From the sequence record MK524177.1: 57,228 nt of DNA; one strand, written 5' to 3'. The DNA is from Escherichia phage PHB10. This document shows, in pieces, positions 21,945 through 56,348 of the stretch (positions within the stretch are counted from its first letter, which is position 1; each line of letters opens with the position of its first letter). The notes beneath the pieces are model-generated. The model was not told the origin of the DNA. It worked only from the letters and a program-made list of their open reading frames with translations, and did no database searches. The translations under genes and the position numbers were made by a program.

Positions 21945-22901
21945 TCATGTATTTTCAGGACAAAGATGCCGGCAGAACCAGTCAACAACCACATTGATGA
22001 CCTCGGGTTGATACCAGTGATAATCACCATGTTCGGCGCCTTCGATAAGTACGTAGTCCGCTTTATTTCCTTCGTCCAAAAGGCCTTCGTAAAGCGTTGC
22101 GCTCTGCTTTGGTGATACTAATGTATCTTTAGTGCCATGCATTATCAGGAATGGAGGTTTGCGCCCTCTAATATGTCCTATGGGGCTTGCATTTATCGCT
22201 TTCTCAGGTGTAGAAGCGATGGATGCGCCTGGAAAGTTCCTGAAAGCAACACCATTAATTAGCAGTGATTCCGTGACCGCAGGAGACTGATGCACTTTTT
22301 GACGGTGATCAGGAAAACCATCACCTATGTTACGCAGGTCTGATATTCCGTAAAGCGTGGCCACAGCCTGCACATCAGCGGACTGGCTGAGAAAATCGCC
22401 GTGTTCGAATGATTTATCGCCATTTGTGGTACCCAGCATCTGAGCCAGCCATCCTCCAGCAGAATCGCCAAATACACCAATTCGTGAGGGGTCAATACCA
22501 TAATCGGGGGCATGTTGACGAAGGTATCTTACTGCTGCTTTAGCATCTACTATTGGTGCAGGGAAGGTATCCGGGATTGTCCTATATTCTGCCGCAGCAA
22601 CAACAAAGCCAGCCTCCGCCAGGGCCATACGCATTTCCATAAATTTGTTGTGCTCAGCCGTCATAAATCCTCCTCCAGGAAAATAGATGATGGCTGGTTT
22701 CAAAAAACTGGTACGAGGCACCAGAAAAGACATGTGTAAATGCCTGACCGAGCGAGTGCTTTTAACTGTCTCATAAACAACATCGCTGATGTTATCTATC
22801 GGGTTACGCGTCATAGCGACCTGAATAATTTCTGCTCCATGAACATAACCGGGAAGATTGTAATGATCAGAAGATACTGCGCCAGTTTGTTTAGAAATCA
22901 T
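21945..22901 (-). CDS. alpha/beta hydrolase (esterase/lipase-type)
   Basis: GDSAGG nucleophile elbow, HGTKD, oxyanion region FPGGGF. Confidence 0.8.
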   Translation of the reverse strand: MISKQTGAVSSDHYNLPGYVHGAEIIQVAMTRNPIDNISDVVYETVKSTRSVRHLHMSFLVPRTSFLKPAIIYFPGGGFMTAEHNKFMEMRMALAEAGFVVAAAEYRTIPDTFPAPIVDAKAAVRYLRQHAPDYGIDPSRIGVFGDSAGGWLAQMLGTTNGDKSFEHGDFLSQSADVQAVATLYGISDLRNIGDGFPDHRQKVHQSPAVTESLLINGVAFRNFPGASIASTPEKAINASPIGHIRGRKPPFLIMHGTKDTLVSPKQSATLYEGLLDEGNKADYVLIEGAEHGDYHWYQPEVINVVVDWFCRHLCPENT

Positions 22902-23090
22902 AAAAAGCTTCCATTGAAAACAGATCTCCGAAGAATCGAATCCTCTATAACTATATCATCCCGTACGAGTCTAGTGAGATCGGTTCTTTCCCTGTATAAC
23001 TAATATAAATATTCATTCTCAAGACTTATCCATGCAAGTACAGTATTTGTGACAAATCCTGGGAAGTGATGTTTTTTCATTCAGAAACAG

Positions 23091-23525
23091 TTACGTCATT
23101 GGATTGCTGTTATTTTTGTTATATTTCAACCTGTCTTCACGAAATCGATCCGCATTTTCGACGATCCAGGTCCATAGCGGAATCATACGAACAAGCAGTT
23201 CCATACCAGTATCAGACAGCTCGTATTCGACTCGTGGTGGAACTTCATTGAAATCATGGCGGATAACAAGGCCGTCCCGCTCAAGTTGTCGTAATGTGCG
23301 CGTCAGCATGCGCTGAGTCACTCCGTGCATACGCCTACCAATCTCAGCATGGCGTAGTCTTCCATACACGCCAAGAGTGTTGATAACACCCAATGACCAG
23401 CGACTTCCTGCATGGGTCAGCACTTCCCGCCGTAAGCCATCATCATCGTCTCTCAGCCCCTTACAAACATCCTGCGAATACTGAAGAATCTCGTCCCGAT
23501 CCATTTCACTGACTCCCGGTATCAT
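23091..23525 (-). CDS. HxlR-family winged-helix transcriptional regulator
   Basis: Motif WSLGVINTLGVYGRLRHAEIGRRMHGVTQRMLTRTLRQLERDGLV; divergent from the NmrA-like gene; start probably 23525. Confidence 0.75.
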   Translation of the reverse strand: MIPGVSEMDRDEILQYSQDVCKGLRDDDDGLRREVLTHAGSRWSLGVINTLGVYGRLRHAEIGRRMHGVTQRMLTRTLRQLERDGLVIRHDFNEVPPRVEYELSDTGMELLVRMIPLWTWIVENADRFREDRLKYNKNNSNPMT

Positions 23526-23594
23526 ACATGTACCTTCTTTTTTAGCCTGTTGTGAATTGCTAGAGTGGCGCAACAATTCATGTAAGGCCAGATT

Positions 23595-24545
23595 ATGAAC
23601 AAAATTGATCTTAACACTACGTCTGAAAATATCCTCGTGCTCGGTGCCGGTGAGCTGGGCCTCCCCGTTCTGCGAAATCTTGCCCTTCGGGCAAAAGATT
23701 TGAAGGGAACAAAAATCAGCGTGCTGTTGCGCGAAAGTACCTTAACTTCAGATGAACCTGGAAAAAAATTAGTTCTCAAGGAAATCAGAAACCTCGGTAT
23801 TAATATTGTCACAGGTGATCTCGTCATGAGTTCTGTCGACGATTTGGCCAGCCTCTTTGCGCAATTTGACACAGTCGTTGGCTGCACGGGGTACGCGGCT
23901 GGAATAAATACACCGATGAAACTGGCGCAGGCGGCTCTGCAGGCGCGGATTCCACGATATTTTCCATGGCAGTTTGGTGCCGATTTTGATGCCATCGGAC
24001 GCGGCAGTCCACAAGACATCTTCGACGCGCAGATTGACGTGCGTGATTTACTACGCAGCCAGCATGAAACCGAGTGGGTCATCATTTCGACCGGCATCTT
24101 CATGAGCTATTTGTTCGAACCAGACTTCGGTGTGGTCGATCTACAGAACGATACTGTTCACGCACTCGGCAGTATTGACAACACCATGACGCTGACAACA
24201 CCGGATGATATCGGGATGCTAACGGCAGCGATTGTATTTAACACTCCTCGCATTCGGAACGAAATTGTATATATCGCCGGTGATACACTGACCTACGCAG
24301 ATGTGGCAGATAAGCTGCAATCAGCGCTTGGCCGTCCTTTCAGCTGCACGGAATGGAGCGAACAACATCTGATGGATAAACTGGCGCTCAACCCGCAAGA
24401 CATGATGTCTAAGTATCGTGCCGTTTTTGCACAGGGGCGGGGAGTTGCTTGGGATAAAAAGCAGACATTCAATGAACGCCATAACATTCCGGTTACCGAT
24501 GTGGCAGCCTGGATTAATGCAAACCTGATCCCAGGCAGCTCATGA
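23595..24545 (+). CDS. NmrA-family NAD(P)-binding oxidoreductase
   Basis: N-terminal Rossmann motif VLGAGELG; typical HxlR/NmrA divergent pair. Confidence 0.75.
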   Translation: MNKIDLNTTSENILVLGAGELGLPVLRNLALRAKDLKGTKISVLLRESTLTSDEPGKKLVLKEIRNLGINIVTGDLVMSSVDDLASLFAQFDTVVGCTGYAAGINTPMKLAQAALQARIPRYFPWQFGADFDAIGRGSPQDIFDAQIDVRDLLRSQHETEWVIISTGIFMSYLFEPDFGVVDLQNDTVHALGSIDNTMTLTTPDDIGMLTAAIVFNTPRIRNEIVYIAGDTLTYADVADKLQSALGRPFSCTEWSEQHLMDKLALNPQDMMSKYRAVFAQGRGVAWDKKQTFNERHNIPVTDVAAWINANLIPGSS

Positions 24546-24652
24546 TAGACGTATTTAGGCTGCTGTAATAAATACCAGAGTCTTTCTCCTGCCTACCCGA
24601 ATAGGTGATGAGAAAGACTCTGTTCCCCCTGTTGGCACTGATAGTAAAGCGG

Positions 24653-25513
24653 TTAAGCTGTGTGAGCTGAAAACCGGCTCTCCGGTAAACCGGGGAATAC
24701 GGCTGATTTCGCTCTTAGCAGCGCTCCATCATGCCTTGACGGCACAGAAAGACCCACGCTGGCACTAGTACAATACAGCGTTGTGAATGCTTCTCCCGCG
24801 AGTGTCGGGCAAGTGCTCTGAATTCCTGGGGAGGGCAGGATACGATCCGTCGTTCCGTCCGGACGATAACGTACAACACGGCTTCCTCCCCATTCGGCAT
24901 TCCAGATATAGCCCATTGCGTCCACGCAGGAGCCGTCAGGCGCCCCCTTTCCCTCTGTTGCAGTGAACACACGCTGGTTATTCATAGTGGGATAATCACA
25001 GCACAATATACGGCCCTGCATCGAGTCACAGTAATACATCGTGCTGCCGTCCGGACTGAAGCAGATGCTGTTCGGGATGGACACCTCAGGCAGGGGTAGC
25101 GTTTCAATGCTGAGTGTCGCTGCATTTAGCCTGTGAAATTTTCCGATGACTTTCGCGGGGTACCCGTCATCCATGGTCCCGAAGACGAAATTACCCTCAC
25201 GGTCGCACCGACCATCCCCTGTCCGTGTTCCCGGCCCTCCCGGTGACCCCACTACCGGTGTAAAGATACCCGTATTCAGATCGCAGAAGGCGAATCTGGA
25301 CGCCAGCCCCATCAGTAAAACGTCAGAATTTTCAGTAAGTGCAAACGATCCGAGGCGCTCAGGCAGCGACCAGCGCATCACAACACCGGTATCTTCTTCA
25401 AGGGCAAGCAGCTCGCTGCCTTCAATGTCAGTCCAATAAATCCTGCGAGTCCTCTCGCACCAGATTGGGCACTCTCCAAGCAAATTTCTGGTATCAGCAG
25501 CCACTGAAAACAT
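24653..25513 (-). CDS. SMP-30/gluconolactonase/LRE-family protein
   Basis: Beta-propeller-like repeats (GECPIW, DxxG motifs); start MFSVAADT at 25513 with GGGAGA SD. Confidence 0.75.
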   Translation of the reverse strand: MFSVAADTRNLLGECPIWCERTRRIYWTDIEGSELLALEEDTGVVMRWSLPERLGSFALTENSDVLLMGLASRFAFCDLNTGIFTPVVGSPGGPGTRTGDGRCDREGNFVFGTMDDGYPAKVIGKFHRLNAATLSIETLPLPEVSIPNSICFSPDGSTMYYCDSMQGRILCCDYPTMNNQRVFTATEGKGAPDGSCVDAMGYIWNAEWGGSRVVRYRPDGTTDRILPSPGIQSTCPTLAGEAFTTLYCTSASVGLSVPSRHDGALLRAKSAVFPGLPESRFSAHTA

Positions 25514-25611
25514 GTTATTTCTCCCGCATATAAAAGTTTCGCATCGCCTGAACAATAGCTTACGGCCATCTGCACTATGGCAGAGCGCCGTAAGGAGCAT
25601 TCCCCACCCTG

Positions 25612-26085
25612 TCAGGGCAAAAAACGCGCTGAAAGTTTGTCACCAAAAAGCATGATGGCGAGTCCTGCCAGCATGACCAGCATGCCCCCCAGTTTGAGCA
25701 GCGAAACCGGTCGCCTAACAGCACCCAGCAGACCGAAATGGTCAATCATTTGCGACGAGAGTAACTGCCCAACGATTGCCAGCCCTAGCAGAGCTGAAAA
25801 ACCGATTTTCGGTGCCAGCACTACGTAGCTGAATAACGCACAGGCACCGATCAGACCGCCCGCCAGACTCCACGCAGGCTGCGAAGGAATAGCAGCGAGA
25901 GAGGTAAATAACCCTCCACGAAGCAGCGAGTAAATCCCGAGACTCAACGCCCCGGCCGTAAATGAGAAGAATGCGGCGGTAACCGGGTCCCCCCCGAGTC
26001 CTTTTGCAAGCTGACTGTTCAGGGTCGTCTGCAGAGTAATACCAAGACCCGCTGCAAAAGCTATTACGTAATAAATCGCGCTCAT
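25612..26085 (-). CDS. small DMT-superfamily membrane transporter, putative
   Basis: 157 aa, four to five hydrophobic helices. Confidence 0.65.
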   Translation of the reverse strand: MSAIYYVIAFAAGLGITLQTTLNSQLAKGLGGDPVTAAFFSFTAGALSLGIYSLLRGGLFTSLAAIPSQPAWSLAGGLIGACALFSYVVLAPKIGFSALLGLAIVGQLLSSQMIDHFGLLGAVRRPVSLLKLGGMLVMLAGLAIMLFGDKLSARFLP

Positions 26086-26099
26086 GCTGTTTTTCCCTG

Positions 26100-27497
26100 T
26101 CAGTTTGCCTGTACCAGCGGCAGAAATTTCTCCGCAAAGATGTCCGGCTCATACCCGGCGGCAGCAAAAAGGTGTTCGCGTGATTCATCGATGGCAGCAC
26201 GAAGACGCTCGCTGTCCACGCCCAGAACTTTACCGTTCTTCTTGACGATGCGCCCGCCAATCATAACGGTATCGATGTTGCTGCGTTCAGTTGCATGCAC
26301 CACCGTCCCGAAGGCATTCCCGTTCGGGTAGAGATTGAGATCAGCAGCATTAATCAGGATCAGGTCGGCCTGTTTTCCTGGCGTCAGGCTACCCACTTTA
26401 TCCTGTAGCCCGGCACAGGTCGCACCATCGACGGTCGCCGACTTCAGCAGTTGCGCTGCCGGGAGCGTTGTTATTGAATGCCCTGAATCACAGCAGTGCT
26501 GCTTATGCATACCCATTACTCGCTGCAGATAGAACGCCACGCGCATTTCCATAAACATATCTGTGCTGTAAGACGTTTCGTTATCCACGCTCAGGCCAGG
26601 ATTGATGCCATGGCGCTGTGCGGCCTCAATGGCAAACATCCCGCTTTCAATGCCATAGTGCGAATCTGAGCGCGGACAGACGTTCACCCGTACGCCGGCT
26701 TCACGCAGGATTTCCCAGCCCTCATCAGGTAGTGCGGTACAGTGGTTGAAGATATTGTCCGGGCCAAGCAGACCCTGCCGATGCAGAGATTCAAGCTCGG
26801 AGGCCATCTCAGCACCAAAGAATTCGGTCACGATCGGCAACCCCAGCCTGCGCGCTTCAGCCCATAATTCTGGCTCCAGCTGAGCCATAACCCCCAAAGT
26901 CACAAGACCCTCTGGGTTATCCCTGAAATACTTTTCCTGCAGACGCTGCCAGTTACCTGGCCAATGTGCACGATCCCATTCACCCGCAACCGGTGCGCCG
27001 GAAGCATGAATGGCGCGAATGCCGCTATCAAGCAGAGCCTCGACTGCAGCGTCGGAATGCGCTGCGGTACGGCTGTTATGCGAGTTATCGATCATCGTAG
27101 TGATACCCGCGTCAATCGCGCCCAGCGCCGTCAGCAGGTTGCCGACATAGATATCTTCAGGACGGTAATATTTAGCGAACGAAAAGTGCGTGGCGTTGCT
27201 GTAGTCGTCCAGACAGGTGGCGTTGGGGTTGATGCGGCGTAGCTGACCTTCCCAGGCGTGACGATGAGAATCAACCATCCCAGGCATGGCAATCATATTT
27301 TTGGCATCAATAACACGAGCACCTGGCGCGTCAAGGTTCTGACCAACGGCGGTAATGATTGAGCCGTTGATGAGAATGTCACCGCGCTCAATATTACCGA
27401 CGCTATCGTCCATACTCAGTATGGTTGCGCCGCGAATCAGCGTTACCGGCGGGTTTTCCGTCTGTTTCTTAACAATATTTCTGTTGTAATTGGTCAT
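26100..27497 (-). CDS. amidohydrolase-family metal-dependent hydrolase (deaminase-like)
   Basis: 465 aa with metal-binding motif MPGMVDSHRHAWEGQ and conserved downstream His/Asp residues. Confidence 0.8.
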   Translation of the reverse strand: MTNYNRNIVKKQTENPPVTLIRGATILSMDDSVGNIERGDILINGSIITAVGQNLDAPGARVIDAKNMIAMPGMVDSHRHAWEGQLRRINPNATCLDDYSNATHFSFAKYYRPEDIYVGNLLTALGAIDAGITTMIDNSHNSRTAAHSDAAVEALLDSGIRAIHASGAPVAGEWDRAHWPGNWQRLQEKYFRDNPEGLVTLGVMAQLEPELWAEARRLGLPIVTEFFGAEMASELESLHRQGLLGPDNIFNHCTALPDEGWEILREAGVRVNVCPRSDSHYGIESGMFAIEAAQRHGINPGLSVDNETSYSTDMFMEMRVAFYLQRVMGMHKQHCCDSGHSITTLPAAQLLKSATVDGATCAGLQDKVGSLTPGKQADLILINAADLNLYPNGNAFGTVVHATERSNIDTVMIGGRIVKKNGKVLGVDSERLRAAIDESREHLFAAAGYEPDIFAEKFLPLVQAN

Positions 27498-27639
27498 TGT
27501 AATCGTCTCTTTCAGATTAAGAAGGAAAACGATACGCCTCCCGATTAAGATGAAAAAGATGACTAACGTGTTTTCATAATTCAGAATTAACGAATAATAA
27601 TGGTTAACAACTTTACACGATATTCAGGAGAGCAGTCAG

Positions 27640-28527
27640 GTGGATCGCATTCAGGCTATGCAGGTTTTTTTAAGGGTGGCTGAAGCCGGAAGCTTTGTCA
27701 GGGCAGCGGAAACACTGTCCCTGCCTTCCTCTACTGTTACCAGCACCATCAAAAACTTGGAGAAATATCTGCAGGTGCGTCTGCTCAACCGGACCACAAG
27801 GAGGGTCAGCCTTACGTCTGAAGGTCTGCAATACCTGGCGCAATGCAGGGAAATCCTTGCCTTAATTGAACATACTGAAGCCAGTCTGGCTGATTCGAAC
27901 AAGCGCCCCCGGGGCCGCTTACGCGTTGATATGCCCGGCGGTATAGCCCATTTCATCGTTATGCCAAATCTGAAAGAATTCTACAGCCGGTATCCTGATA
28001 TTTACCTGATGATCGGTGTCAGTGACCGGCAAGTTGATCTGGTTCAGGAGGGTGTGGATTGCGTGATCAGAACCGGAGATTTGCTTAGCTCAACACTTGT
28101 TGCCCGTCCGCTTGGGCAGTTCCGCTGGATCACCTGCGCCTCTCCCGAATATCTCAGAAAGTATGGTATTCCACAGTCACCTCAGGATTTATCTCATCAC
28201 AGGGCTATTCATTATTTTTCAGGGCAAAACCGACGTACAGACGAATTGCGTTTTGTACATGGAACAGAAACGCTGTCTGTATCCGTCAGCGGGCAGGCAG
28301 CCGTCAATGAGACGGGACTCTATATAAAAATGTGCCTCGAAGGGTTCGGACTGGCGCAGCTTGCTGAAAACGTTGTAGCAGAACACCTGCAAAAAGGAAC
28401 ACTGGTTGAAGTCCTGGCCGACTGGCAGCCGTCGTCTGTTCCTGTCACTTTGCTTTATCCCCATCAGCGTTTTCTTTCACCCGCCGTACGCGCATTTGCA
28501 GACTGGGTAGATGAAATCTTTAGTTGA
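27640..28527 (+). CDS. LysR-family transcriptional regulator
   Basis: N-terminal HTH (MQVFLRVAEAGSFVRAAETLSLPSSTVTSTIKNLEKYL) and LysR substrate-binding domain. Confidence 0.85.
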   Translation: MDRIQAMQVFLRVAEAGSFVRAAETLSLPSSTVTSTIKNLEKYLQVRLLNRTTRRVSLTSEGLQYLAQCREILALIEHTEASLADSNKRPRGRLRVDMPGGIAHFIVMPNLKEFYSRYPDIYLMIGVSDRQVDLVQEGVDCVIRTGDLLSSTLVARPLGQFRWITCASPEYLRKYGIPQSPQDLSHHRAIHYFSGQNRRTDELRFVHGTETLSVSVSGQAAVNETGLYIKMCLEGFGLAQLAENVVAEHLQKGTLVEVLADWQPSSVPVTLLYPHQRFLSPAVRAFADWVDEIFS

Positions 28528-28725
28528 TATGTCTGTTACAGCCACCCGAGCACATTAAAAGTCAGCAGTATTCAGGATACCTGGCAGGACGGCAGGCTTT
28601 GCTTCGCGGATGCGTCCATTCCGGAACGGCGGCTTCACAGGTAAAGAGCTGTACCCAAAAATTCAATTCTCCGTTTTAAAAGTAACGCCTCCGGCTAAGA
28701 ACCCCAGCCGCATCCGGGGCCTCTT

Positions 28726-29619
28726 TTAACTGAAATGTCTGAGTAAAATATCTTCAAGGATGTGAAAAACGGTCCTGATGCGTTGCGGTACAAGGGTCTG
28801 ATAGGGCCGGTAAAGATAAAGCTGCCAGGTTTCCAGTTTTAGTTCCGGTAAAACATTCACCAGCCTGCCGTCTTCGAGATATTCCCTGCAGGCCAGATTA
28901 CTCGACTGGATCACTACTTTACCGGCTAATGCAGCCTGAATCTCAGACTGGGAGTCGGTAGTAATAAATTCAAGATGTCGTGGTACAAAAGTATCGACGC
29001 CATCGAGCATATATTCGAATACTTTGCCGGTATCAGGATTCAACAGGCCACTGAAAGGATAGCGCTGGCGCAGATCGTCGAAATTTTCCGGCGCACCCAG
29101 CCGCTCAATGAGCCCGGGAGATGCCATCAGCGCGTGATGAACAAGCGTAATGGGCCTGATAATAAAGTTCGGATTTGGCTCCCGCTCAATACGGATCCCC
29201 ATGTCAATGCGGTTCTGAACAGTATCCAGCTTCATCATGTCCAGCCGCCAGTCTATAAACAGCTCAGGATAAGGACGAAGCGCATTCAGAAGCTCATAGA
29301 GTACCTGTTCGTGCCCGGGAAAGCGAAACAGGGTGATCCTCACAATCCCCTTCATCTCATTGTCATCTCTGGCCGTTTGAAACAGGGCCTCTGAATCCTC
29401 AAGCAAACGAAGGGCCCCCGGCAGGAAGAGCTCACCAAAGCTGGTCAGCACAATAGATCGGGTATTCCGCTTAAAAAGTGGCTCGCCGAGCTGATTTTCC
29501 AGTTCAGCAATAGTGCGCGTCACCACTGAAGGAGAAATGGCCAGTCTGACCGCTGCTTCACGAAAATTCATCGTTTCTGCAGCGGCAACAAAAAATTTCA
29601 GCGCATCTAGTTTATTCAT
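28726..29619 (-). CDS. LysR-family transcriptional regulator
   Basis: HTH LDALKFFVAAAETMNFREAAVRLAISPSVVTRTIAELE; divergent from the AKR operon; start probably 29619. Confidence 0.85.
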   Translation of the reverse strand: MNKLDALKFFVAAAETMNFREAAVRLAISPSVVTRTIAELENQLGEPLFKRNTRSIVLTSFGELFLPGALRLLEDSEALFQTARDDNEMKGIVRITLFRFPGHEQVLYELLNALRPYPELFIDWRLDMMKLDTVQNRIDMGIRIEREPNPNFIIRPITLVHHALMASPGLIERLGAPENFDDLRQRYPFSGLLNPDTGKVFEYMLDGVDTFVPRHLEFITTDSQSEIQAALAGKVVIQSSNLACREYLEDGRLVNVLPELKLETWQLYLYRPYQTLVPQRIRTVFHILEDILLRHFS

Positions 29620-29736
29620 GATTGTTGTTTTTTTAGCAATTCTGACTTTCAAAATTAACAATTTTTATGCAACAAATCCAGCCATATACTTAACCGCTCT
29701 AAAACATCACTGAGTTAAGAAAAGTCAGGATTCACT

Positions 29737-30702
<966 letters not shown>

Positions 30703-30717
30703 AAATAAGAGATCGAA

Positions 30718-31233
30718 ATGAAAACAACTGTATTTGTTACCCATCCCAATATTCATCTGTCCCGTGTTAACTCGGCGCTGGCAAATAGTGCAGCTTCACT
30801 GCCCGATATTAATGTACGTTATCTGTATGACATGTATCCGGATGGTAAAATCGACGTGGCCGCTGAACAGGCTGCGCTGGAAAATACCGATCGTATTGTG
30901 CTGCAGTTCCCGATGCAGTGGTACAGCACGCCGCCACTTCTCAAGCAGTGGCTTGATGATGTACTGACCTACGGCTGGTCACATGGTGGCGAAACTCAGG
31001 CGCTGCATGGCAAGCAACTCATGCTGGCAGTTTCGCTCGGTGGTGCTGAGTCTGCGTATCAGCCTGATGGAGCAGCCGGTCATACGGTTAGCGAATATCT
31101 GCTGTCCTTTGAAACAATCTCCGGGTATCTGGGTATGCATTATCTCAAGCCTTTCATTACCGGCGGAAGTGCGACGATCACCGACGGGGAAATTGCGGCA
31201 CAGGCTGAACGCTACAAAACGGTATTAGTCTGA
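30718..31233 (+). CDS. flavodoxin-like NAD(P)H-dependent oxidoreductase
   Basis: 171 aa, flavodoxin-fold-like; 15 nt downstream of the AKR gene (operon). Confidence 0.65.
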   Translation: MKTTVFVTHPNIHLSRVNSALANSAASLPDINVRYLYDMYPDGKIDVAAEQAALENTDRIVLQFPMQWYSTPPLLKQWLDDVLTYGWSHGGETQALHGKQLMLAVSLGGAESAYQPDGAAGHTVSEYLLSFETISGYLGMHYLKPFITGGSATITDGEIAAQAERYKTVLV

Positions 31234-31481
31234 TTAGCATCATGCATTCTTTCGATTATTAAAACGCTCTGATGTGCTGGTTGTCGCTGAGGATTATAAT
31301 TGTGGCAACCTGCACAACTATGGCTGCTGATGGCTGTTGTTACTGCCCTCAGCAAACACAAGATACCTGCCCCTACGCTTTGCCTTTCCGAGATAACGGG
31401 TGAAGATATCTGCTCCCCGTTGATTGACACAGAACGCTATTTGCAATGTTCGCTCCTCGCTCAAAGCGGACCAGTTCATCT

Positions 31482-32168
31482 CTATGCCCTCCCATCAGCC
31501 TTCATTCGCTCATATTTGGCTTTCAAAAGCTCCGCTGGAGTTGGCCCTTTCGATGCCACTGGCGCTGCCAGCGCCCTACGAACAGGCGGAATTGGCTTCC
31601 CGGACAGCACTCGCTTCTCCCACATACCCAGAATCTCGCCAGCCTCGCGCTCGAGCTCTTTCTGACACAACTGGCCATCGGTTCCGCGGCGACGCAGTTC
31701 GAGGCAGATGTGGTAAAAAACCGGCTTTGGCCAGGGATACTGCTCGCTGCTCGGGTACCGGAACACCAGCTTGCGCCACTTCCAGTATTCAGCCATCACG
31801 TCAGCGGTGGTGATCCCCAGCACACAGCGCCCTTCCCTGCACCACTTGATGAACTGGCCTGGCGAAGGCAGGAATGGACGCTCCTGACGACGCACCATGC
31901 GCATTCCCGCTTCAACCTGCTCCAGAGTGGTGATCCCGTTTTCTTTGAACGCCAGCACCCACTGACGGCGAATCTCGTTCACGTCTTCCTGGCTGCGGTT
32001 TACCAGGCTTGCCGGAAACGCAGCCGCCAGCTGTACGAATAGCCCGTTGATAATCTGGGCCACCTGCTGCGTTTGCTCGCGCTCGGTGTACTGCTCAGGC
32101 AGGTTATGCGCCACACGGCGAGCCTGTTCCCGGTCAAAATTGCGAATGCTCTCGGCAAGATTTTTCAT
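31482..32168 (-). CDS. replication protein P (helicase loader)
   Basis: Strong similarity to lambda P as I recall it (NFDREQ.RR.A.N.PEQY, QVAQIINGxF, RRQWVLAF.ENGITT, RPFLPSPGQF). Confidence 0.85.
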   Translation of the reverse strand: MKNLAESIRNFDREQARRVAHNLPEQYTEREQTQQVAQIINGLFVQLAAAFPASLVNRSQEDVNEIRRQWVLAFKENGITTLEQVEAGMRMVRRQERPFLPSPGQFIKWCREGRCVLGITTADVMAEYWKWRKLVFRYPSSEQYPWPKPVFYHICLELRRRGTDGQLCQKELEREAGEILGMWEKRVLSGKPIPPVRRALAAPVASKGPTPAELLKAKYERMKADGRA

Positions 32169-33115
32169 TCCAGCACCCCGTCAATCCAGTCGGTGTTATG
32201 CAGGTCAATACCGCCCCGTGATGGCTTTACCGTTCCGGTAGCGCGTAGCCGTTTGGTAGTGAGCTGATCCCACTGCTTGCGCAGACTCGAGGGGCTCAGG
32301 ATGTTGTCTTTCCAAAACTCGTCCCGGTTGGCCCACTGGAACAGGTCACAGATTTCGTAGTGAGTACGCTTGTCCTGGACGCGCATCAGCCTGATGGTGT
32401 TTGCCCATTCAGCCCAGTTGGGCTCGGATAGCGATGCGTTGACGGTGAGAAGCCTGTCGTAAATCCAGCGGGCGGCCTTGAGGTCGTCAGCGGATCCCCA
32501 TGATTTACCTGCCGGGGTGTATATCCCGTCGGCAGCTTCAGGATGGCGAGAGAGAAACTTTTGAGTTTTCTGGTTTCGGGATTCGTCAGAATTCCGAGAC
32601 GAGGATCTTTTAATATTGTTCTTGTTATAGTCTTGGGTGTCTACCGTTTCCGGGAAGGTTTTTCCCGTTTTCGGCAACACTTTTCCCGATTTCGGGAAGA
32701 CTTTTCCCGTTTTCGGTTTGTCTAAAATCCAGGCGGAAAGGTCAGTATTTATACCGACCGTTTTCATCACCCCCTGCTTCTGACTGAAGATAATTTTGCG
32801 TTCAGCGAGTGATTTGAGCGCATCCGAAACGTGGGAATCACTCAGCCCTGTAAGCTCGGCGATCACCGTGTTCGTAACGCGGTCCTGCTTCTTGTTCCAG
32901 CCGTAGGTAAGCCAGATCACCGCCTCAAAACACTGCCACTCCCGGCCTGACATTCTCAGACGAGGCTTAAGCTGTTGGATCTCGTTAGCGACCTTGGTAT
33001 ACCCGTTCGACAGGTCGGCCATACGACCTCCCGGTTGTTCGGTTCTTTGGGGGAAATTGATAATTTCAGCTGTGTTTGACATACTTAGCTCCGCAATTAC
33101 ACTCCGTTTTTGCAC
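32165..33115 (-). CDS. replication initiator O-like protein
   Basis: Upstream of P with overlapping stop/start; contains the ori iterons, which encode the repeated PKTGK peptide. Confidence 0.8.
   Translation of the reverse strand: MQKRSVIAELSMSNTAEIINFPQRTEQPGGRMADLSNGYTKVANEIQQLKPRLRMSGREWQCFEAVIWLTYGWNKKQDRVTNTVIAELTGLSDSHVSDALKSLAERKIIFSQKQGVMKTVGINTDLSAWILDKPKTGKVFPKSGKVLPKTGKTFPETVDTQDYNKNNIKRSSSRNSDESRNQKTQKFLSRHPEAADGIYTPAGKSWGSADDLKAARWIYDRLLTVNASLSEPNWAEWANTIRLMRVQDKRTHYEICDLFQWANRDEFWKDNILSPSSLRKQWDQLTTKRLRATGTVKPSRGGIDLHNTDWIDGVLE
32628..32711. repeat. replication origin iterons inside the O gene
   Basis: Three 21-bp repeats TTTTCCCG(T/A)TTTCGG at 32649, 32670, 32691 plus a partial inverted copy at 32634; AT-rich stretch at 32590-32627. 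Confidence 0.7.
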
Positions 33116-33166
33116 CTGAAAGCCGTTGGTGTTCGAGCACCGCGGCTTTCGCCTTTTCTGAAGTCT

Positions 33167-33718
33167 TCACATTGCCCCCAACATGGTTGTGACCATCGCC
33201 AGCAGCGGCGCCGTAAGGTCCGGATCGATCCTGAACATTTCGAAAATCCCCTCGCCTAACTCCTTCAGTTTTTCCTTCTTCGGTGCATCGAGCATCAGAG
33301 CTTGCTTCGCCTCACTTACCTCTTTTTCCAGCCGGGCCATTCGGTAAGCAAACGAGTCGTTCTTTACGACACGGTCGCGGTATCGAAGCGGCAATACAGA
33401 CATGATCGCGGGCACCAGCTGTTCGACGTTCTTTCGGTACGATACGGAGTCTTCTTTGTTGTCGAGCCAGCGGAACAGCTTCACGTTCCAGACATCGGCC
33501 TGGCCTGAGAAATCCACGCCATCAAGTTGAAGTTCTTCCGCCGCTTCTTGGATTTGAAGCGCAACAGCTACGCGCCCTTCTGCCGCTGCCCACGCCCGGA
33601 CTGCAGAACAAATATCGCGATGATCAATATCCTGCTCTGCCGATTTGCTTTGATGACACGGGAATATCATTGGATTAGAGCAAGCTCTGCTACTCTGTTG
33701 AAATGAAACAGTTTGCAT
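33167..33718 (-). CDS. hypothetical regulatory protein in the cII position (YdaT-like?)
   Basis: 183 aa ORF between the cro-like gene and O. Confidence 0.35.
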   Translation of the reverse strand: MQTVSFQQSSRACSNPMIFPCHQSKSAEQDIDHRDICSAVRAWAAAEGRVAVALQIQEAAEELQLDGVDFSGQADVWNVKLFRWLDNKEDSVSYRKNVEQLVPAIMSVLPLRYRDRVVKNDSFAYRMARLEKEVSEAKQALMLDAPKKEKLKELGEGIFEMFRIDPDLTAPLLAMVTTMLGAM

Positions 33719-33720
33719 AG

Positions 33721-33948
33721 TTAAGGTTCCTGTTTAGGTAAACCGTCGGTGGGGTTTGGATAGAGATCGGGTCGTAACTCGTGGGGAGTTACTCCGGTCA
33801 TTTTAAAAATGGGAAAGATGTAGTTTGGAGGGACGATCCCATGGTCACGATTCTTCCAATGACTTACGGACATACTCGTAACACCTAGCGCGATGCTGAG
33901 CTTTCTGGCTGAGCCAGCAGCTTTAATTGCTTTATCGAGTGCGGACAT
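33721..33948 (-). CDS. Cro/YdaS-like HTH regulator
   Basis: 75 aa, HTH KLSIALGVTSMSVSHWK, ELRPD motif; divergent from the repressor; AGGAGAAG SD. Confidence 0.7.
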   Translation of the reverse strand: MSALDKAIKAAGSARKLSIALGVTSMSVSHWKNRDHGIVPPNYIFPIFKMTGVTPHELRPDLYPNPTDGLPKQEP

Positions 33949-33976
33949 GTGCTTCTCCTGATTATAGACAGCGCAA

Positions 33977-34042
33977 GTAAACCATAGATTTACATTATAT
34001 GCAAACCATAACTTTATTGCGTGTATAAACCAAGTATTTACA
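33977..34042. promoter_or_regulatory. operator region: three AAACCA-N4-TTTA repeats and divergent promoters
   Basis: Repeats at 33978, 34003, 34027 (24-25 bp spacing); TACAAT -10 hexamer at 34039-34044 placed for a leaderless repressor transcript. Confidence 0.45.
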
Positions 34043-34050
34043 ATGGCATT

Positions 34051-34425
34051 ATGAGAAAAGAAGAACCCAACCTCCTATTGGTGGACCGCCTAACTGAGAT
34101 CACAGATCGTGGCGTTACCAAAGCAGACATGGCACGAATAGCTGGAGTCACCCCTCAGGCCGTAAACGGCTGGTTCAAAAAAGGCGTGATCAGTAAGAAA
34201 TCGGCACTGGCTATAGCCGATGCTGTAGGCATTTCAGTCGCCTGGCTACTTGGTGAGGATGTTGGAGAGAAGGACGGCCTTAAGCCGGACGAGCAGCGCT
34301 TACTAGAACTCTACCGCCAATTGCCAGAAGAAGAGCAGCAGAACATGCTTCGTATCTTTGCGCTTCGCTTGAAGGAGTTGGATGAGCTGTATGAGAAGTA
34401 CATGAAAGGGCGCATAAAAAATTAA
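34051..34425 (+). CDS. prophage repressor (XRE-type HTH, no peptidase domain), probably leaderless
   Basis: HTH TKADMARIAGVTPQAVNGWFKKG plus coiled-coil C-terminus; no SD before ATG 34051 and a -10 hexamer 7 nt upstream. Confidence 0.65.
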   Translation: MRKEEPNLLLVDRLTEITDRGVTKADMARIAGVTPQAVNGWFKKGVISKKSALAIADAVGISVAWLLGEDVGEKDGLKPDEQRLLELYRQLPEEEQQNMLRIFALRLKELDELYEKYMKGRIKN

Positions 34426-34512
34426 TTAAGTGAATTGATGCTACGATTGTTGATGTGACGTTAATGACCCGTTTTCACTTAAGTTATCTAACCATACGTA
34501 CGTGGAAAAAAG

Positions 34513-34833
34513 ATGGACGAAGAAAATAAAGATAATGCTGAAAACCTAGGCGAAAGCGGTATCACAAGAGCGCTTTCAATTCTTGGAGAAGAATTTGGTA
34601 ATTATTTTCTAGAATTGGAATCTAAGCACGGGGAGATGGTTTGTCCTTTATGCAGAGGTACCATGTGGGGTATCCCTCCAAGATTCGACTCTGCCGAACA
34701 CCCTGCTATCGTGACTCTCCCTTTACCTAACTCTGCCGGGCGTGGTATCTGGGCTTATCCTCTCATCTGCTCTGGATGCGGTTTCATTGCAACGTTTTCT
34801 GCATTTGAAGTTTCAAAGAAGATTCGGGGATAA
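34513..34833 (+). CDS. small zinc-ribbon protein (CPLC...CSGC), first gene of repressor-linked module
   Basis: 106 aa, four Cys in two CxxC pairs, acidic N-terminus; AT-rich; 87 nt downstream of the repressor. Confidence 0.5.
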   Translation: MDEENKDNAENLGESGITRALSILGEEFGNYFLELESKHGEMVCPLCRGTMWGIPPRFDSAEHPAIVTLPLPNSAGRGIWAYPLICSGCGFIATFSAFEVSKKIRG

Positions 34834-34839
34834 ATTCTC

Positions 34840-35217
34840 ATGGCAGCCGTGTGCTTAGACTCCAACTCGATAATGAGGCTAACGGTTAGCACTTCAGAGA
34901 TTTTTGAGGCATTGCCGACAATCGAAAATCGCATCGGGGACACGCCTTACACACCCGACGAAGCTACCGTTATGATCATTACAACTAATGTGTCTCGTTC
35001 AGAAAATTGTACTGGTTTGCTGATACTATCTGTAATATTAGTATGTTTAATTGGTGTTATAGTAAATGTATTAGGAGGTAAAGTAATGCACTACATCCCC
35101 TTGTACATCGCACTTGCACCTGTATTTTATTGGGTGCTTAAAATCGCTTACGCATTTTTTGTTGTTAAGTTTCATAAACTTCAAACTAGTTCTTCATTTT
35201 TCAAGCAGGAAGACTAA
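34840..35217 (+). CDS. small membrane protein (soluble N-terminal domain plus two TM helices), second gene of module
   Basis: 125 aa; 6-nt gap after the previous gene; hydrophobic segments LLILSVILVCLIGVIVNVLGG and IPLYIALAPVFYWVLKIAYAFFVV. Confidence 0.5.
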   Translation: MAAVCLDSNSIMRLTVSTSEIFEALPTIENRIGDTPYTPDEATVMIITTNVSRSENCTGLLILSVILVCLIGVIVNVLGGKVMHYIPLYIALAPVFYWVLKIAYAFFVVKFHKLQTSSSFFKQED

Positions 35218-35639
35218 TGCCTAACGATAATCTTAAAAACACAGCTAAAAATGGTCTTCCACTAGTCATAGCAAGCGTGTTGTGTGGATACGCAACGAAC
35301 GCAATTCCTGTTCTCTTCCCTGCAGGTGAAACAAGAGAATGGGCTTATCGCTCGATTCCTTTCTTGTCTATCATTATTTTATTCATTATCAAGACCTTGA
35401 AAGATTTTGGCGGTATGTCTTTTAGTAATCTTGTGTTCACAATCTGCGCGAGTTCAGAAAAAAAACGACTTCTAGCGATGATAAATGACAGCAATCTGAG
35501 CCAAGCGACAAGAGATGATGCTAAAAAGCGGTATGACGAAATTGGCCGCCAAGAACTTGAGCTTGGATCTCGGTTTCTGAAGTATGTTTCACAATGGTCG
35601 GTTATAAATAAATCCCCAACCCCCCCACCTACTGATTAA
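35217..35639 (+). CDS. small membrane protein (two TM helices plus charged C-terminal domain), third gene of module
   Basis: 140 aa; start overlaps the previous stop (TAATG); followed by a terminator. Confidence 0.5.
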   Translation: MPNDNLKNTAKNGLPLVIASVLCGYATNAIPVLFPAGETREWAYRSIPFLSIIILFIIKTLKDFGGMSFSNLVFTICASSEKKRLLAMINDSNLSQATRDDAKKRYDEIGRQELELGSRFLKYVSQWSVINKSPTPPPTD

Positions 35640-36418: not shown

Positions 36419-39400
36419 ATGGAATTTTTCTATGTAGTGAAGGCTACGCAGAAATCTGGCAAAGAAGACGCAGTGATTTGGTTCACTGCTAAATCAGAAG
36501 CCCGTGCCAACCTGCAGCTCGATGTCGAGCTGGAAGATGCAGGTATTGAAACCGGCCGCGGTAAGGATTACTCAAAACCGGTTCGCACCGATTTCCCTGT
36601 TTACAACGATCTGCCTGAAGAAAGCACCGTGGATTACATCTGGTGCAAACGCTACGAACTGCAGGACGATGGACGCACCTGGCTGCCAAAGGCTGGTGCT
36701 GAGTCGACTGGTGACATGGACAGCTCTGCCGCACCGGAGACGACCGTTAATGTCGAAACTACCGTCGAAAGTGTCCCGCTTGAAAACCGCACTCCAGCGG
36801 TCCGTTTTGCCGTCCATCTGACCAGCGACAAATACCAGTCACACATCACTAAAGAGCAGCAGCTGGCTGCCAGCGAAATGTCACTGGATGAAGGCAACAC
36901 CTATCTCCAGAATCTGCTACTGGCGAAGAACGACACCCCTGAAGTTGCCGAACTCAGCCTGAACGCTGAGTGGAAACTGGTACAGGTGATTAAACAGGTA
37001 TTCGCGCTAGATGAAGAGCACGAAGTAAAGCTACTTGCTGCTTTCATGGCCGACTGGTTGAGAGTTGATGCCGGCGCCCGTAATGAGGTAGTGAGAGAGT
37101 GGAAGAACGGAAAGCTTACTCTGCTCAAATCAGAAAGAACCAGCGACGCCGGGGTTGAAACTGATCAGCATATCGCTATTGATGACGGTATCCAGATCGG
37201 CGAGCACGACGATGAAAACACCCGTTATCCAGTGTGCAGAATGCCCTTCCGCAAGCAACTTCTTTCACAGTTCACCGCCGACGAACTGCGCCACCACTTA
37301 ACCCGCGAAGAATACGAAGGTATCAGCGCGCTGGAAATGGACACAGACAACAGCTATGTCCAGAACCTGCTTCTGGCGGCAGAAAACTGCGAAGAGGTTA
37401 AGGGTTACGATACCAAAGACCTGTGGCGCTACACCGACGCCATTCGCAAGGTGTTCAGCCAGGAGAAGCGTCACGAACTCGCTTTGGTTCTCCGATTCAC
37501 CAGAATCTGGGCTGCGACTGATTACATTGACCGCGGCACCCTGGTGCGCGAATGGGTTGAGGGTAATCGCATTTCTGAAGTAGGTTCTCCTGCACCTTTA
37601 GAACCAGAAAAACCAGAAACAACCGAATCCTATAAACGCGCTGTTGCCCAGAACATGGCGAACTTGAGCATTGAGATCGCGATTGCTCAGCTTTACCCAG
37701 ATGCAGTACCGGGGCAAATCAACCGTACGCAACTCCTGGCCGCCAAAGAACTCGCTGACAAAAAAGATGAGTCGCACGCCAAGGCGCTCAAGGTTCTTAG
37801 TAAAACCACCGACATCCTCGACTACGACGCCAACAGTATTTTTGGAGTTACCCGCGCTATTTCATGGTCTGGAGAAGAAAGCACAACCAAACTGCGTAGC
37901 CAGGTGCGTGAGTGGTTCACGGCGAACGGCATCTATGAAAGCGGTGAGCGCTCTAAAGGATATCCAGAATGGAACGAAGACTCCCGCGAGGTTCGTCATT
38001 CCACAGTGGAAGAACCAAGTACTCCAAGCCAGACAAAGGTCGCAAGCCTTGGAAGCGGCGTGTTCTCCATCGATGGCCTGATGGATGGAAATACCGAACC
38101 GGTCATCAATACCAACTCAAATGAAGTCGAAAAAACGGAAAAAACAGCGGAGACCACCAGCGATGTGCAGATGGAAACGGCTAAGCCAGAAAAAGACGAA
38201 GATGTTGGTTCGGTACCACCGAGCGAAAGCACTGATGCAGCTAATTCGCAGACAGATTCCGTAACGTTGGAAGAACAGCAAGCAGAACCGGTAATTGAGT
38301 ACCCAGCTTATTTCGAGCCTGGCCGCTACGAAGGCCTACCGAATGACGTTTATCACGCAGCAAACGGTATTAGCTCAACCCAGGTGAAAGATGCCCGGGT
38401 CAGCCTGATGTATTTCAACGCACGCCATGTGGCTAAAACTATCCCGCGCACAGCATCCAAAGTTCTGGACATGGGGAACCTGGTGCACGCCCTTGCACTG
38501 CAACCGGAAAACCTCGATGCAGAGTTCAGCGTGGAGCCTGAGATCCCGGACGGTGCTTTCACCACAACCGCAACTCTGCGCGAGTTCATCGACGAGTACA
38601 ACGCTAGCCTGCCGGCGCTGCTAAGCGCTGACGAGATTAAAGCGTTGCTTGAAGAACATAACGCATCCCTTACAGCTCCAGTGCCGCTTGGCGCGAGCCT
38701 GGAAGAAACGGCTCAAAGCTATATGGCTCTCCCTGCTGAGTACCAGCGTATTGAAGAAGGCCAGAAGCAAACGGCAACGGCAATGAAGGCGTGCATCAAA
38801 GAGTACAACGCTACCCTGCCCGTGCCGGTTAAAACCAGCGGCAGCCGTGATGCGTTATTTGAGCAATTAGCAATCATCAATCCAGACCTGGTGGCGCAAG
38901 AAGCGCAGAAACCGACACCGCTGAAAGTGTCAGGCAGCAAAGCAGACATGATCCAGGCTGTTAAGTCGGTTAAGCCCGATGCCATATTCGCCGACGAACT
39001 GCTGGATGCCTGGCGCGACAACCCTGGCGAAAAGATTCTGGTTACCCGCCAGCAGCTGGCCACAGCGCGGGCAATTCAGTCTGCACTCCTGGCGCACCCT
39101 ACAGCTGGCATGCTGCTGACACATCCAAGCCGCGCTGTTGAAGTGAGTTACTTCGGCTTTGACGACGAAACAGGTTTAGAAGTGCGTGTACGCCCTGATC
39201 TCGAGATTGAACTGGACGGCGTGCGAATTGGCGCCGACCTGAAAACCATCAGTATGTGGAATGTGAAGCAAGAAAGCCTTCGCGCCAGGCTGCACAGGGA
39301 AATCATAGACCGTGACTATCACCTCAGCGCGGCTATGTATTGCGAGACCGCGGCGCTGGACCAGTTCTTCTGGATTTTCGTCAACAAAGACGAGAACTAC

Positions 39401-41032: not shown

Positions 41033-41245
41033 ATGTCGCAGGTAATATTTAACGAAGAATGGGTTGTTGGCGCAAGGCTCACAGAAAAAACAGGCCTGAC
41101 CGAACGACAGATTGAGAAGTATCGCCAGGGCTGTTGGGTGGAAGGTGTCCATTTTAAACGGGTTTCTCCTTCCGGAGAAAAAACCTTGCGTGGCACAACC
41201 TGGTACAACTATCCGAGAATTAATCAGTTAATAAGGGATGCGTAA
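41033..41245 (+). CDS. xis: excisionase
   Basis: 70 aa basic protein immediately upstream of and overlapping int. Confidence 0.7.
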
Positions 41246-42485
41246 GATGGCAGCTATGCCTACAGGTGTCGAAATCAGAAACAATAAGATTTGTATCTGG
41301 TTTATGTACCGGGGAAAGCGTTGCCGCGAAATTCTCAAAGGTTGGATTAACACTCCGGCGAACATCAAAAAAGCCGGAAATCTTCGGGCTGTGATCGTTA
41401 GTGAGATCAACCTTGGAGAGTTTGATTACCACCAGCGCTTTCCTTCATCGTCCAGAGCAAAAAAAACCGTAACCACTGTTTCAGTTCAAACCTTTTCAGA
41501 GCTGTGTGAACTGTGGACGAGCATTAAAGAAACCGAAATTAGCGCGAATACCATGCGTAAGACGCGCTCACAACTCGGTACGTTAATGCACATCATTAAC
41601 GGAGATACGCCTGTTTCAACTATACGCCACAGCGACATTCTGAAATACAGGAAGGAGCTGTTGAACGGTGAGACACTTTACCTGGCAAATCCCAGAAGTA
41701 ACAAACAGGGACGCACTGTGCGTACCGTGAACAACTATATATCGCTTCTGTGCTCCCTTCTTCGGTTTGCACACAAATCTGGCTTTATCAGTGGCAAACC
41801 ATTTGAAGGGATCAAGAAACTACACAAAGGGAAAGTAAAACCGGATCCTTTAACGAAGCAGGAGTTTAGTTTGCTTGCGGCATCCGAGCGTGGCCAAAGC
41901 CTCAATATGTGGACGTTCGCAGTTTATACTGGTGTCCGTCATGGAGAGCTTGCAGCTCTTGCCTGGGAAGATATCGACTGGGAAAAAGGTACGGCTCATA
42001 TACAGCGCAACCTTAATGCGCTAGGAATGTTCGTCCCACCAAAAACCGATGCAGGTGATCGAGTTATCACGCTATTAGAGCCGGCACTTGAAGCCTTGAA
42101 AGCACAGCGCAAGCTAACAGCGCTGCAGCCTAAAACCGAAATTGTCTTTAATCATCGCGAGTATGGCGCAGTGGAACATCAAAGCCTGCGATTCGTTTTC
42201 ATACCCCGGATGCGCAAAGGAGAACAGAAAGCCTACTACTCTTTATCGAGCATCGGTGCGAGATTCAACGCAGCTGTAAATCGTGCTGGTATTCGCCGCC
42301 GGAATCCGTACCATACGCGGCATACTTTTGCCTGCTGGCTTTTATCTGCCGGCGCTAACCCGTCTTTCATAGCCAGCCAGATGGGGCATGAAAACGCGCA
42401 AATGGTTTATGAAGTCTACGGTGCGTGGATTGAAGAAATGAATGGCGAACAGGTGCTGATGCTTAACGATAAGCTGGCACGCTGA
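41238..42485 (+). CDS. int: tyrosine integrase (lambda-type with N-terminal arm-binding domain)
   Basis: C-terminal catalytic motifs (R...[28 protein letters not shown]...Y); 415 aa; adjacent to the repeat-flanked att region. Confidence 0.9.
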
Positions 42486-43738: not shown

Positions 43739-44037
43739 TTTACGAGACAAATATTTTCCTAATGGCAATCCAGATTTGACTATACAGGATTGGTTAATAA
43801 TAGCCAAACCTATTTTATTGGCCTTCCGGAAGGCTAAAATAAAATTTGCTTAATCTTTCAGCACGTGCCTTAATGGTTTGGCTGATTCATTGCGATGATG
43901 AATCTAACTTTTCCAAAAGCCGTTCTCATAACTAGGTGTTATCTCTGATATCCCTCCTTTTGAGTCCATACATATACCAGCATACGTTTCTTATCATGAG
44001 CTTGCTTGTCAGTTTGAAATGTTCAAACGGAGTTTGT

Positions 44038-44256
44038 ATGTCATCTAAAATCATAGGTCTTGTTAAGTGGTTTAACGAAGATAAGGGGTTTGGCTTTATC
44101 TCCCCACTTGATGGAAGTAAAGATGTTCTTGTTCACACTTCTTCCCTGCGGGGAGAAACATTTAATACTCTTTTTGAAGGACAAAAAGTCAAATTCGCTA
44201 TCATAGCTGGAACTAAAGGTCCAATCGCTGCCAATGTAACACTTTGCGATAGATAA
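44038..44256 (+). CDS. cold-shock-domain protein (CspA family)
   Basis: [35 protein letters not shown]; start 44038 with GGAG SD. Confidence 0.85.
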
Positions 44257-44497
44257 TTTTAGATGGTTTACTTAAGCCAGCATGACTTTATCAGTGAAAG
44301 GTGATGTTCGGTTACTCACATCATTACAACAGGCCAGCATATTTACTTACCATCAAGTTTGCTGACCGATGTGATGAAATGCAGGACTGCTGCATGAACA
44401 GTCTCAAAGCAGAAGCTAACTGCTTATAAAATACTAAAGTGCGTAAGAGGTTAGGCAGCCTCCAAAAGCATCACTTCTTATTTTTTAATAATTTTTT

Positions 44498-54891: not shown

Positions 54892-54985
54892 ACATGCCTC
54901 CAAAGTCTCTCTTGACTAAGAGAGACTATTAATGTTGATAGACTTTTTGATGTTTTTAACACGCAATCCAAGAATTCAAATCAAC

Positions 54986-56347: not shown

Positions 56348-56348
56348 G

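Follow-up and report, generated by a model that had tools for sequence, protein, structure and literature searches.

Does the short tandem array inside the O-like gene of Escherichia phage PHB10 (MK524177.1) mark the site at which DNA replication begins, or does it only encode a repetitive stretch of the initiator protein? We addressed this question in the whole stretch of DNA analysed, 57,228 nucleotides long and referred to here as the window. Origins placed inside the O gene are of a kind known since the late 1970s. The comparisons described below indicate that the array is very probably the theta replication origin of a lambdoid phage, of the phi80 (gene 15) specificity type and embedded in the gene for its own initiator.

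The O-like gene and its iteron array

The array lies in a gene whose product matches the Pfam family Phage_rep_O over residues 31-129 (E 1.9e-24), and both this gene and the P-like gene that follows it are full-length reading frames (Table 1). The mechanically defined reading frame of the O-like gene runs on the minus strand from a GTG at 33115 to 32165, and the likely actual start is the ATG at 33082, which lies opposite the phi80 gene 15 start in the alignment. Over its full length, the O-like protein is 81% identical to O of Klebsiella phage ST16-OXA48phi5.1, 71% to phi80 gp15 and 40% to lambda O. The P-like protein is 62% identical to phi80 gp14, 50% to lambda P and 40% to the Klebsiella-phage P, whereas the P of one E. 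coli prophage (strain 210205630) is 95% identical to it. When the PDB was searched by sequence, no O-protein structure was found, and the only matches were weak ones to HTH regulators.

Table 1. Coordinates of the replication genes and of the features within and around the putative origin
Feature	Coordinates	Strand	Remarks
CI-like HTH repressor gene	34021..34425	+	Divergent; Pfam HTH_3, 1.6e-6, above the curated cut-off
Cro-like gene, YdaS family	33721-33948	-	Pfam YdaS_toxin, 2.2e-13; upstream of O, same operon
CII-like gene, YdaT family	33167-33718	-	Pfam YdaT_toxin, 1.8e-21; upstream of O, same operon
oop/M3-like antisense RNA unit	33076..33151	+	Promoter-like match and terminator hairpin; position matches that of phi80 M3 RNA
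O-like replication initiator gene	32165..33082	-	305 aa; Pfam Phage_rep_O
Iteron 1, AAACCGAAAACGGGAA	32704..32719	-	Aligns with the first annotated phi80 gp15 protein_bind site
Iteron 2, TTCCCGAAATCGGGAA	32683..32698	-	14/16 positions self-complementary; aligns with the second phi80 gp15 site
Iteron 3, TTGCCGAAAACGGGAA	32662..32677	-	Aligns with the third phi80 gp15 site
Iteron 4, TTCCCGGAAACGGTAG	32641..32656	-	Aligns with the fourth phi80 gp15 site
AT-rich, A-rich block, ACACCCAAGACTATAACAAGAACAATATTAAAAGATCC	32603..32640	-	38 bp, directly 3' of iteron 4 in the O sense
Right-hand block, TCGTCTCGGAATTCTGACGAATCC	32579..32602	-	Conserved with lambda and phi80; right edge is the mosaic junction
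Degenerate fifth iteron-like site, ATCCCGAAACCAGAAA	32567..32582	-	Candidate, status uncertain; 4 mismatches to the consensus
P-like helicase-loader gene	31482..32168	-	Overlaps the O stop codon; Pfam Phage_lambda_P, E 1e-47

Read on the minus strand, the array consists of four direct iterons at an exact spacing of 21 bp (32641-32719), with the consensus TTCCCGAAAACGGGAA. The first-pass annotation had described three 21-bp direct repeats and a partial inverted copy. The period and the direct orientation hold, but the number does not: the supposed inverted copy, TTCCCGGAAACGGTAG at 32656-32641 on the minus strand, is a fourth direct copy in the 21-bp register, which had been read as inverted because the units have internal dyad symmetry. 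The motif given for the three repeats, TTTTCCCG(T/A)TTTCGG, does occur exactly three times in the 57 kb, on the plus strand at 32660-32674, 32681-32695 and 32702-32716, and in none of 100 shuffles. The limits proposed for the array, 32628-32711, do contain repeats, but they end 5-8 nt short of it and at their start take in 13 nt of the neighbouring AT-rich block.

When the consensus was allowed up to three mismatches, all five matches in the 57 kb fell within the array, against 0.49 expected, and none of 100 shuffles reached five. Tandem Repeats Finder returned a single array for the interval 31000-34500, at 32644-32716 (period 21, 3.5 copies, score 104). Internal dyad symmetry ranges from 6 to 14 self-complementary positions of 16 per iteron and is weak in iterons 1 (6/16) and 4 (8/16). 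Tracts of four to five A residues occur twice in each of iterons 1 and 3 and once in iteron 2. Further iterons upstream, as in the six-iteron Stx phages, were not found at up to four mismatches, save for a weak site at 32582.

As had been proposed, the repeats are coding. Each unit is in phase 0 of the 305-aa reading frame, and the iterons occupy codons 122-149 of 305, between the N- and C-terminal halves of O. Since 21 bp amounts to seven codons, the array encodes a regular heptad of the form (F/L)PK(T/S)GKx, here KPKTGKV-FPKSGKV-LPKTGKT-FPETVDT, and this heptad is part of a low-complexity linker between the two domains of O. In an AF2 model of O, a helix/winged-sheet N-domain and a helical C-domain flank residues 117-174, which are modelled at pLDDT <50 and with no secondary structure; the model, built from a 5-sequence alignment with a mean pLDDT of 53.6, is of low confidence and gives weak support to the linker.

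An AT-rich stretch had also been placed downstream of the repeats in the O sense, and it is found at 32640-32603, where the GC content is 0.32 compared to 0.52 for the O gene and A makes up 53% of the O-sense strand. Of the 38-bp windows in the O-P region, the one lowest in GC begins at 32597 and overlaps this block. Nearest-neighbour energies place the least stable 40-bp window of this region there too, beginning at 32604 and 3.5 sd away from the mean. We presume that the block at 32603-32640 is the DNA-unwinding element. A promoter-like match in the same place (32643-32615) was rejected as its primary function, being within chance expectation. The right-hand block that follows includes an imperfect palindrome around GAATTC, TCGGAATTCTGA, with 10 of 12 positions matching.

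The genes are ordered cI / cro-cII-O-P and oriented in a way that fits transcription through the origin. A pR-like promoter with operators driving such transcription should lie in the gap between cI and cro (33949-34020), which contains repeated, operator-like TATGGTTT(G/A)C motifs together with TATAAT boxes; a consensus promoter scan called no pR-like promoter in this gap. Against the Phage_CI_repr family, the CI-like gene scored 1.4e-3 and 19.4 bits, below the 22-bit cut-off. Within the 5' end of O, the plus strand carries a promoter-like sequence, TTGACA-16-TACACT (33076-33103), which matches the consensus at 10 of 12 positions, and behind it a terminator hairpin at 33117-33151 (-21.8 kcal/mol, z -2.5) followed by GCCTTTTCT. 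This unit has the position of lambda oop and of the annotated phi80 M3 RNA. An Rfam scan of the whole window assigned neither the origin nor the oop-like RNA to any RNA family.

Lambdoid genes sampled elsewhere in the window include RecE/RecT, integrase, Q, terminase, portal, tape measure, L, K and J. When the two ends of the window were joined, no terminal repeat was seen, and an M-like reading frame matched its family on one side of the join only.

Relationship to the phi80 and lambda origins

The closest known system is the origin of phi80 (Lula), which lies in gene 15 with gene 14 downstream (JX871397 / X13065). Record JX871397 annotates the gene 15 product as 'replication initiation protein 15; similar to lambda O' and marks four gp15 protein_bind features at 21-bp spacing (36663-36677, 36683-36698, 36704-36719 and 36725-36739). 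In the gene alignment, each of these features coincides with one of the window's four iterons. The gp15-binding status of the phi80 sites is taken from the GenBank annotation, and their experimental status reportedly goes back to Grosschedl & Hobom 1979 and Ogawa et al. 1988. The two systems share four iterons at exact 21-bp spacing, the core TTCCCGAAAACGGGAA, the matching aligned codons, the AT-rich and right-hand blocks after the array, and an oop-like antisense RNA upstream. The N-domain of O (residues 1-121) is about 91% identical to gp15, compared to about 32% to lambda O, and the 5' half of O together with the origin has 87.5% nucleotide identity to gene 15. On the other hand, single iterons differ from those of phi80 at one to three positions, the spacers differ as well, and the early regulators, in place of cro/cII as in phi80, are of the YdaS/YdaT type found in mEp237-like phages.

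The array also sits at the place in the O gene that is equivalent to that of ori-lambda (NC_001416, iterons 39034-39118), and the region corresponding to it in lambda is a proven origin (PMC7466680, PMC3349717, PMC5043065). The first-pass annotation had recognised a lambda ori architecture, which the comparison bears out: iterons within a Phage_rep_O gene, an AT-rich block, a right-hand block and then a gene of the lambda P family. The lambda iterons, four in number and dyad-symmetric, have the form CCC-N-AAAAC-N-GGG; on their 3' side are about 40 bp of AT-rich DNA and then a conserved TCGTC..GAATTCTG.CGAATCC block, with the P gene next and the oop RNA upstream. The alignment with lambdoid origin regions that had been suggested as a check was obtained for both lambda and phi80. 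Lambda iterons 1-4, its AT-rich region and the ...TTCGTCAGAGAATTCTGGCGAATCC block align with the origin segment of the window; in phi80 as in lambda, the AT-rich block of the window has an AT-rich region aligned to it, and the right-hand block, TCGTC..GAATTCTGACGAATCC, aligns with both phages. Unlike those of the window, the lambda iterons have the sequence TCCCTCAAAACGAGGGA and are irregularly spaced (20, 24 and 23 bp), so that the peptide encoded in lambda is not a regular heptad. The N-domain of O is only about 32% identical to that of lambda O, which implies a different origin specificity. By its iterons and N-domain, the origin is of the phi80 (gene 15) specificity type and not of lambda's own.

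The Stx phages P27 and 933W carry six lambda-type iterons inside O, with an AT-rich tract after them, and in Stx phages O is extended or shortened with the number of iterons (PMC7466680). The window resembles P27 and 933W in having its origin inside O, with iterons followed by an AT-rich tract, but it has four iterons, as do all of its relatives scanned.

A Megablast search with the O gene against 50,697 phage records matched 11 records, which was confirmed by blastn. Phages phi80, mEp237 and HK225 matched O query bases 1/24-537 only, at about 87.5% identity, three Klebsiella phages matched nearly the whole O gene (80-82%), and one Hafnia phage matched its 5' half (78%). To these phage records we added 80 IMG/VR loci, in which O has 97-99% amino acid identity, and two E. 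coli prophages. Exact copies of the iteron array, with any bases allowed in the spacers, were found in Enterobacter cloacae, E. quasihormaechei, E. wuhouensis, Pseudocitrobacter vendiensis and one MAG labelled Bacillota. As these exact copies lie in Enterobacter species and Pseudocitrobacter and not in E. coli, a host in the Enterobacter group is likely.

The likeness to phi80 stops abruptly where the origin ends on its right, at 32579. On the 5' side of this position, 87.5% of the nucleotides are identical to phi80, and on the 3' side 55.3%; none of the BLAST matches to phages of the phi80 group or to many E. coli prophages extends past it. For the C-terminal half of O, identity is 79% with the Klebsiella-phage type and 48% with phi80. 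Judged by these identities, O is a mosaic with its junction at 32579. The replication module as a whole likewise appears as a hybrid in these comparisons, in which a phi80-like C-half paired with a gp14 partner was not found. With the C-half at 48% and P at only 62% identity to phi80, compatibility of O, P and DnaB in the hybrid has to be assumed. In the two-domain model established for lambda O (Furth, Moore, Blattner and colleagues), the N-half co-evolves with the iterons, and the C-half does so with P; a module boundary placed where the origin ends on its right agrees with this model.

Across the AT-rich block from the array, at the mosaic junction where phi80 homology ends, there is a possible fifth, degenerate iteron-like site. 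It is one of two matches outside the array at up to four mismatches in the whole window, both strands included, and was picked out post hoc. By eye, it can be seen in the Klebsiella-phage lineage but not in phi80 or lambda. We consider it rather unlikely that this candidate site is functional, either as an extra O-binding site bracketing the unwinding element or as a short homology at which modules of N-half and origin are recombined onto other modules of C-half and P. It is a possibly new detail of an otherwise known origin, and if it were an extra O-binding site, O would bracket the unwinding element, unlike in lambda and phi80.

Selection on the origin DNA and rival explanations

Had the repeats not been conserved among related O genes, the first-pass annotation would have lost its reading of them as an origin. 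Their number, spacing and core are conserved in phi80, mEp237, HK225, the three Klebsiella phages, the Hafnia phage, E. coli prophages and the 80 IMG/VR contigs. Four copies at 21 bp were present in 89 of the 89 phi80-type loci scanned. At up to three mismatches, 80 of these loci scored all four copies, and the rest had one copy just past the cut-off; variation in iteron number among relatives was thus rejected, the apparent three-copy loci being those with one copy past three mismatches. Among 34 distinct arrays, diversity (pi) was 0.011-0.055 at core positions 1-16 and 0.14-0.22 in the five-base spacers after iterons 1-3.

Where the constraint lies was seen when 85 distinct O genes were aligned by codon. 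Diversity at third codon positions was 0.038 in codons 122-172 compared to 0.176 elsewhere, about 4.6-fold lower (Mann-Whitney p 8e-12, which is only indicative as the sequences are related and non-independent). It was 0.154 in the N-domain, 0.208 in the C-half and 0.035-0.043 in the iterons, the AT-rich block and the right-hand block, and the 51-codon window of the O gene with the lowest value was codons 118-168. Amino acid diversity was not lower in codons 122-172 (0.073, against 0.057 elsewhere), and the ratio of pi3 to the mean of pi1 and pi2 was 0.9 there and 4.9 elsewhere. These values point to selection acting on the origin DNA itself. In the 80 IMG/VR contigs, variation outside the origin is dominated by synonymous changes, which indicates ongoing purifying selection on O.

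These data bear directly on the view that the array is a repeat at the protein level only, a heptad-based flexible linker (PKTGK three times) between the O domains whose DNA has no role in cis. The array is indeed in frame with a regular seven-residue repeat, and the region is predicted by the AF2 model to be unstructured. However, third codon positions here are the less variable ones while the peptide is not more conserved, the opposite of what selection on the protein alone would leave, and the loss of codon periodicity, a signature of selection at the nucleotide level, argues against a purely protein-level repeat. Neither the dyad symmetry nor the split in conservation between core and spacer is needed for coding, the homologous phi80 sites are annotated as gp15-binding, and the lambda counterpart is a proven origin. 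We therefore regard a coding role alone as highly improbable. Still harder to credit is the notion that the array serves mainly as a regulatory or competitive site that titrates O, or as an antisense terminator, and not as a site of initiation. Lambda iterons on plasmids do inhibit rep-lambda phages (PMC3349717), and adjacent iterons of the window form a terminator-like hairpin on the plus strand (32693-32709) followed by a T-run. That hairpin is one of seven such matches against 3.4 expected, which is within chance, and follows from the dyad symmetry of the iterons, so it was rejected as a primary function. Titration and termination would moreover be secondary consequences of an origin and no alternative to one, and the full origin layout, with its AT-rich and right-hand blocks, is conserved along with the iterons.

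An improbable but less remote reading is that the origin looks intact and no longer fires, either since the phage is a defective or domesticated prophage or since the hybrid O is incompatible with P or with the host helicase. The mosaic junction at 32579, a 9.3-kb block of non-phage genes directly after P, and early genes of the YdaS/YdaT type could all be taken in this sense; the YdaS/YdaT family was first named in a cryptic E. coli prophage. Against it stand the full-length O and P reading frames, the recurrence of O at 97-99% amino acid identity in 80 IMG/VR contigs with purifying selection indicated, and the lambdoid gene set sampled in the window (integrase, RecE/T, Q, terminase, portal, tape measure and J). 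In addition, the Klebsiella phages with a like C-half include two records deposited as complete phage genomes.

A model for initiation and its significance

For the theta origin favoured here, initiation can be pictured on the model of lambda (PMC5043065, PMC7466680, PMC3349717), with O binding, DNA melting and origin firing at the array all inferred from homology. Transcription from the cro side (pR) would express O and P and would also traverse and activate the origin. Dimers of the N-terminal winged-helix domain of O would then bind the four partly palindromic 16-bp iterons, which the exact 21-bp spacing, two helical turns, would set on one face of the helix. The tracts of four to five A residues probably favour intrinsic curvature, as reported for lambda, and together with the sites on one face they may favour wrapping of the DNA into an O-some. 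On supercoiled DNA, the stress of wrapping would melt the adjacent 38-bp AT-rich block, to which the C-terminal domain of O would bring the P-bound host DnaB helicase.

This type of origin is already known and annotated in phi80, and as such the feature is ordinary. Its identification marks both the origin and the replication-specificity type of the phage, in which phi80-like iterons are combined with a C-half of O and a P that are not those of phi80, and the right edge of this origin displays a module junction of the classic kind. The locus is also a clean example of how conservation at third codon positions can expose a cis-acting DNA element within a coding sequence. Potentially, the segment at 31.5-34.0 kb could be used on its own as the replicon of Enterobacter vectors, and on the basis of the iterons, incompatibility or exclusion would be expected with phages of the phi80 type.

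Elements around the initiator and repressor genes

We identified a degenerate fifth iteron-like site, ATCCCGAAACCAGAAA, which lies beyond the AT-rich block as seen from the four iterons of the replication origin within O, the lambda-O-like initiator gene, and which coincides exactly with the breakpoint of homology to phi80. We also found an oop/M3-like antisense small-RNA unit, in which a near-consensus promoter within the 5' end of O is followed by a strong hairpin and then a T-run. The hairpin and T-run overlap the 3' region of the cII-like gene, and the unit has no match in Rfam.

The gap between the cI-like and cro-like genes houses a repeated TATGGTTT(G/A)C motif together with two TATAAT boxes, which are probably operators and divergent promoters; a consensus promoter scan called no promoter in this gap. 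Three small genes follow the repressor gene in a region of low GC content (0.43). Two of them have no Pfam match, while the third contains CxxC...CxxC and gives a weak, sub-threshold zinc-ribbon match (Zn_Ribbon_TF, 21.3 bits versus a cut-off of 29). It is possible that these genes are superinfection-exclusion or defence morons.

Genome layout and RNA elements

The window resembles a complete lambdoid genome in circularly permuted form, with the integrase gene in its middle and the M-like minor tail gene cut by its start. Joining the two window ends (1-1007 and 54289-57228) revealed neither a terminal repeat nor a clean continuation of the M-like ORF across the join. Among the RNA elements, the cspA 5' UTR match suggests a phage-borne cold-shock gene.

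Coordinates of features in the window; Rfam entries are matches at the gathering score
Feature	Position	Strand	Remark
M-like minor tail N-terminus	window start		cut by window start
Tape measure	3995-1083	-	
STnc100 sRNA, one copy	17258-17463	-	Rfam
tRNA	17807-17880	-	Rfam; near Q/lysis region
Metabolic and regulatory block	21945-31233		9.3 kb
P stop codon	31482		
Fifth iteron-like site	32567-32582	-	
oop/M3-like unit	33076-33160	+	
cI-cro gap	33949-34020		
Three small genes	34513-35639	+	
Integrase	41238-42485	+	mid-window
cspA thermoregulator 5' UTR	43911-44310	+	Rfam
STnc100 sRNA, other copy	45642-45843	+	Rfam
L, K, adjacent small ORFs, J	57104-50789	-	

The site downstream of P

The site immediately 3' of P, the helicase-loader gene, is hypervariable. 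The P stop is the exact contig end in 18 of the 80 IMG/VR contigs encoding the same O (loci L009-L088), and in an E. coli relative the site after P is occupied by a restriction endonuclease gene and a SEC-C-domain gene (L090, 2125-2961). In the IMG/VR relatives that reach past P, homology with the window ends at the P stop codon.

In the window, P is separated from the DUF1367/Q late-regulation genes by a run of ordinary metabolic and regulatory genes. These encode an esterase, an SMP-30 lactonase, an amidohydrolase, an aldo/keto reductase and a flavodoxin-like oxidoreductase, as well as an NmrA-like protein, a YdcZ exporter and two LysR regulators. The block had no match among 50,697 phage records and is absent from every IMG/VR relative reaching past P. 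It is non-defence cargo, unusually large for the position after P.
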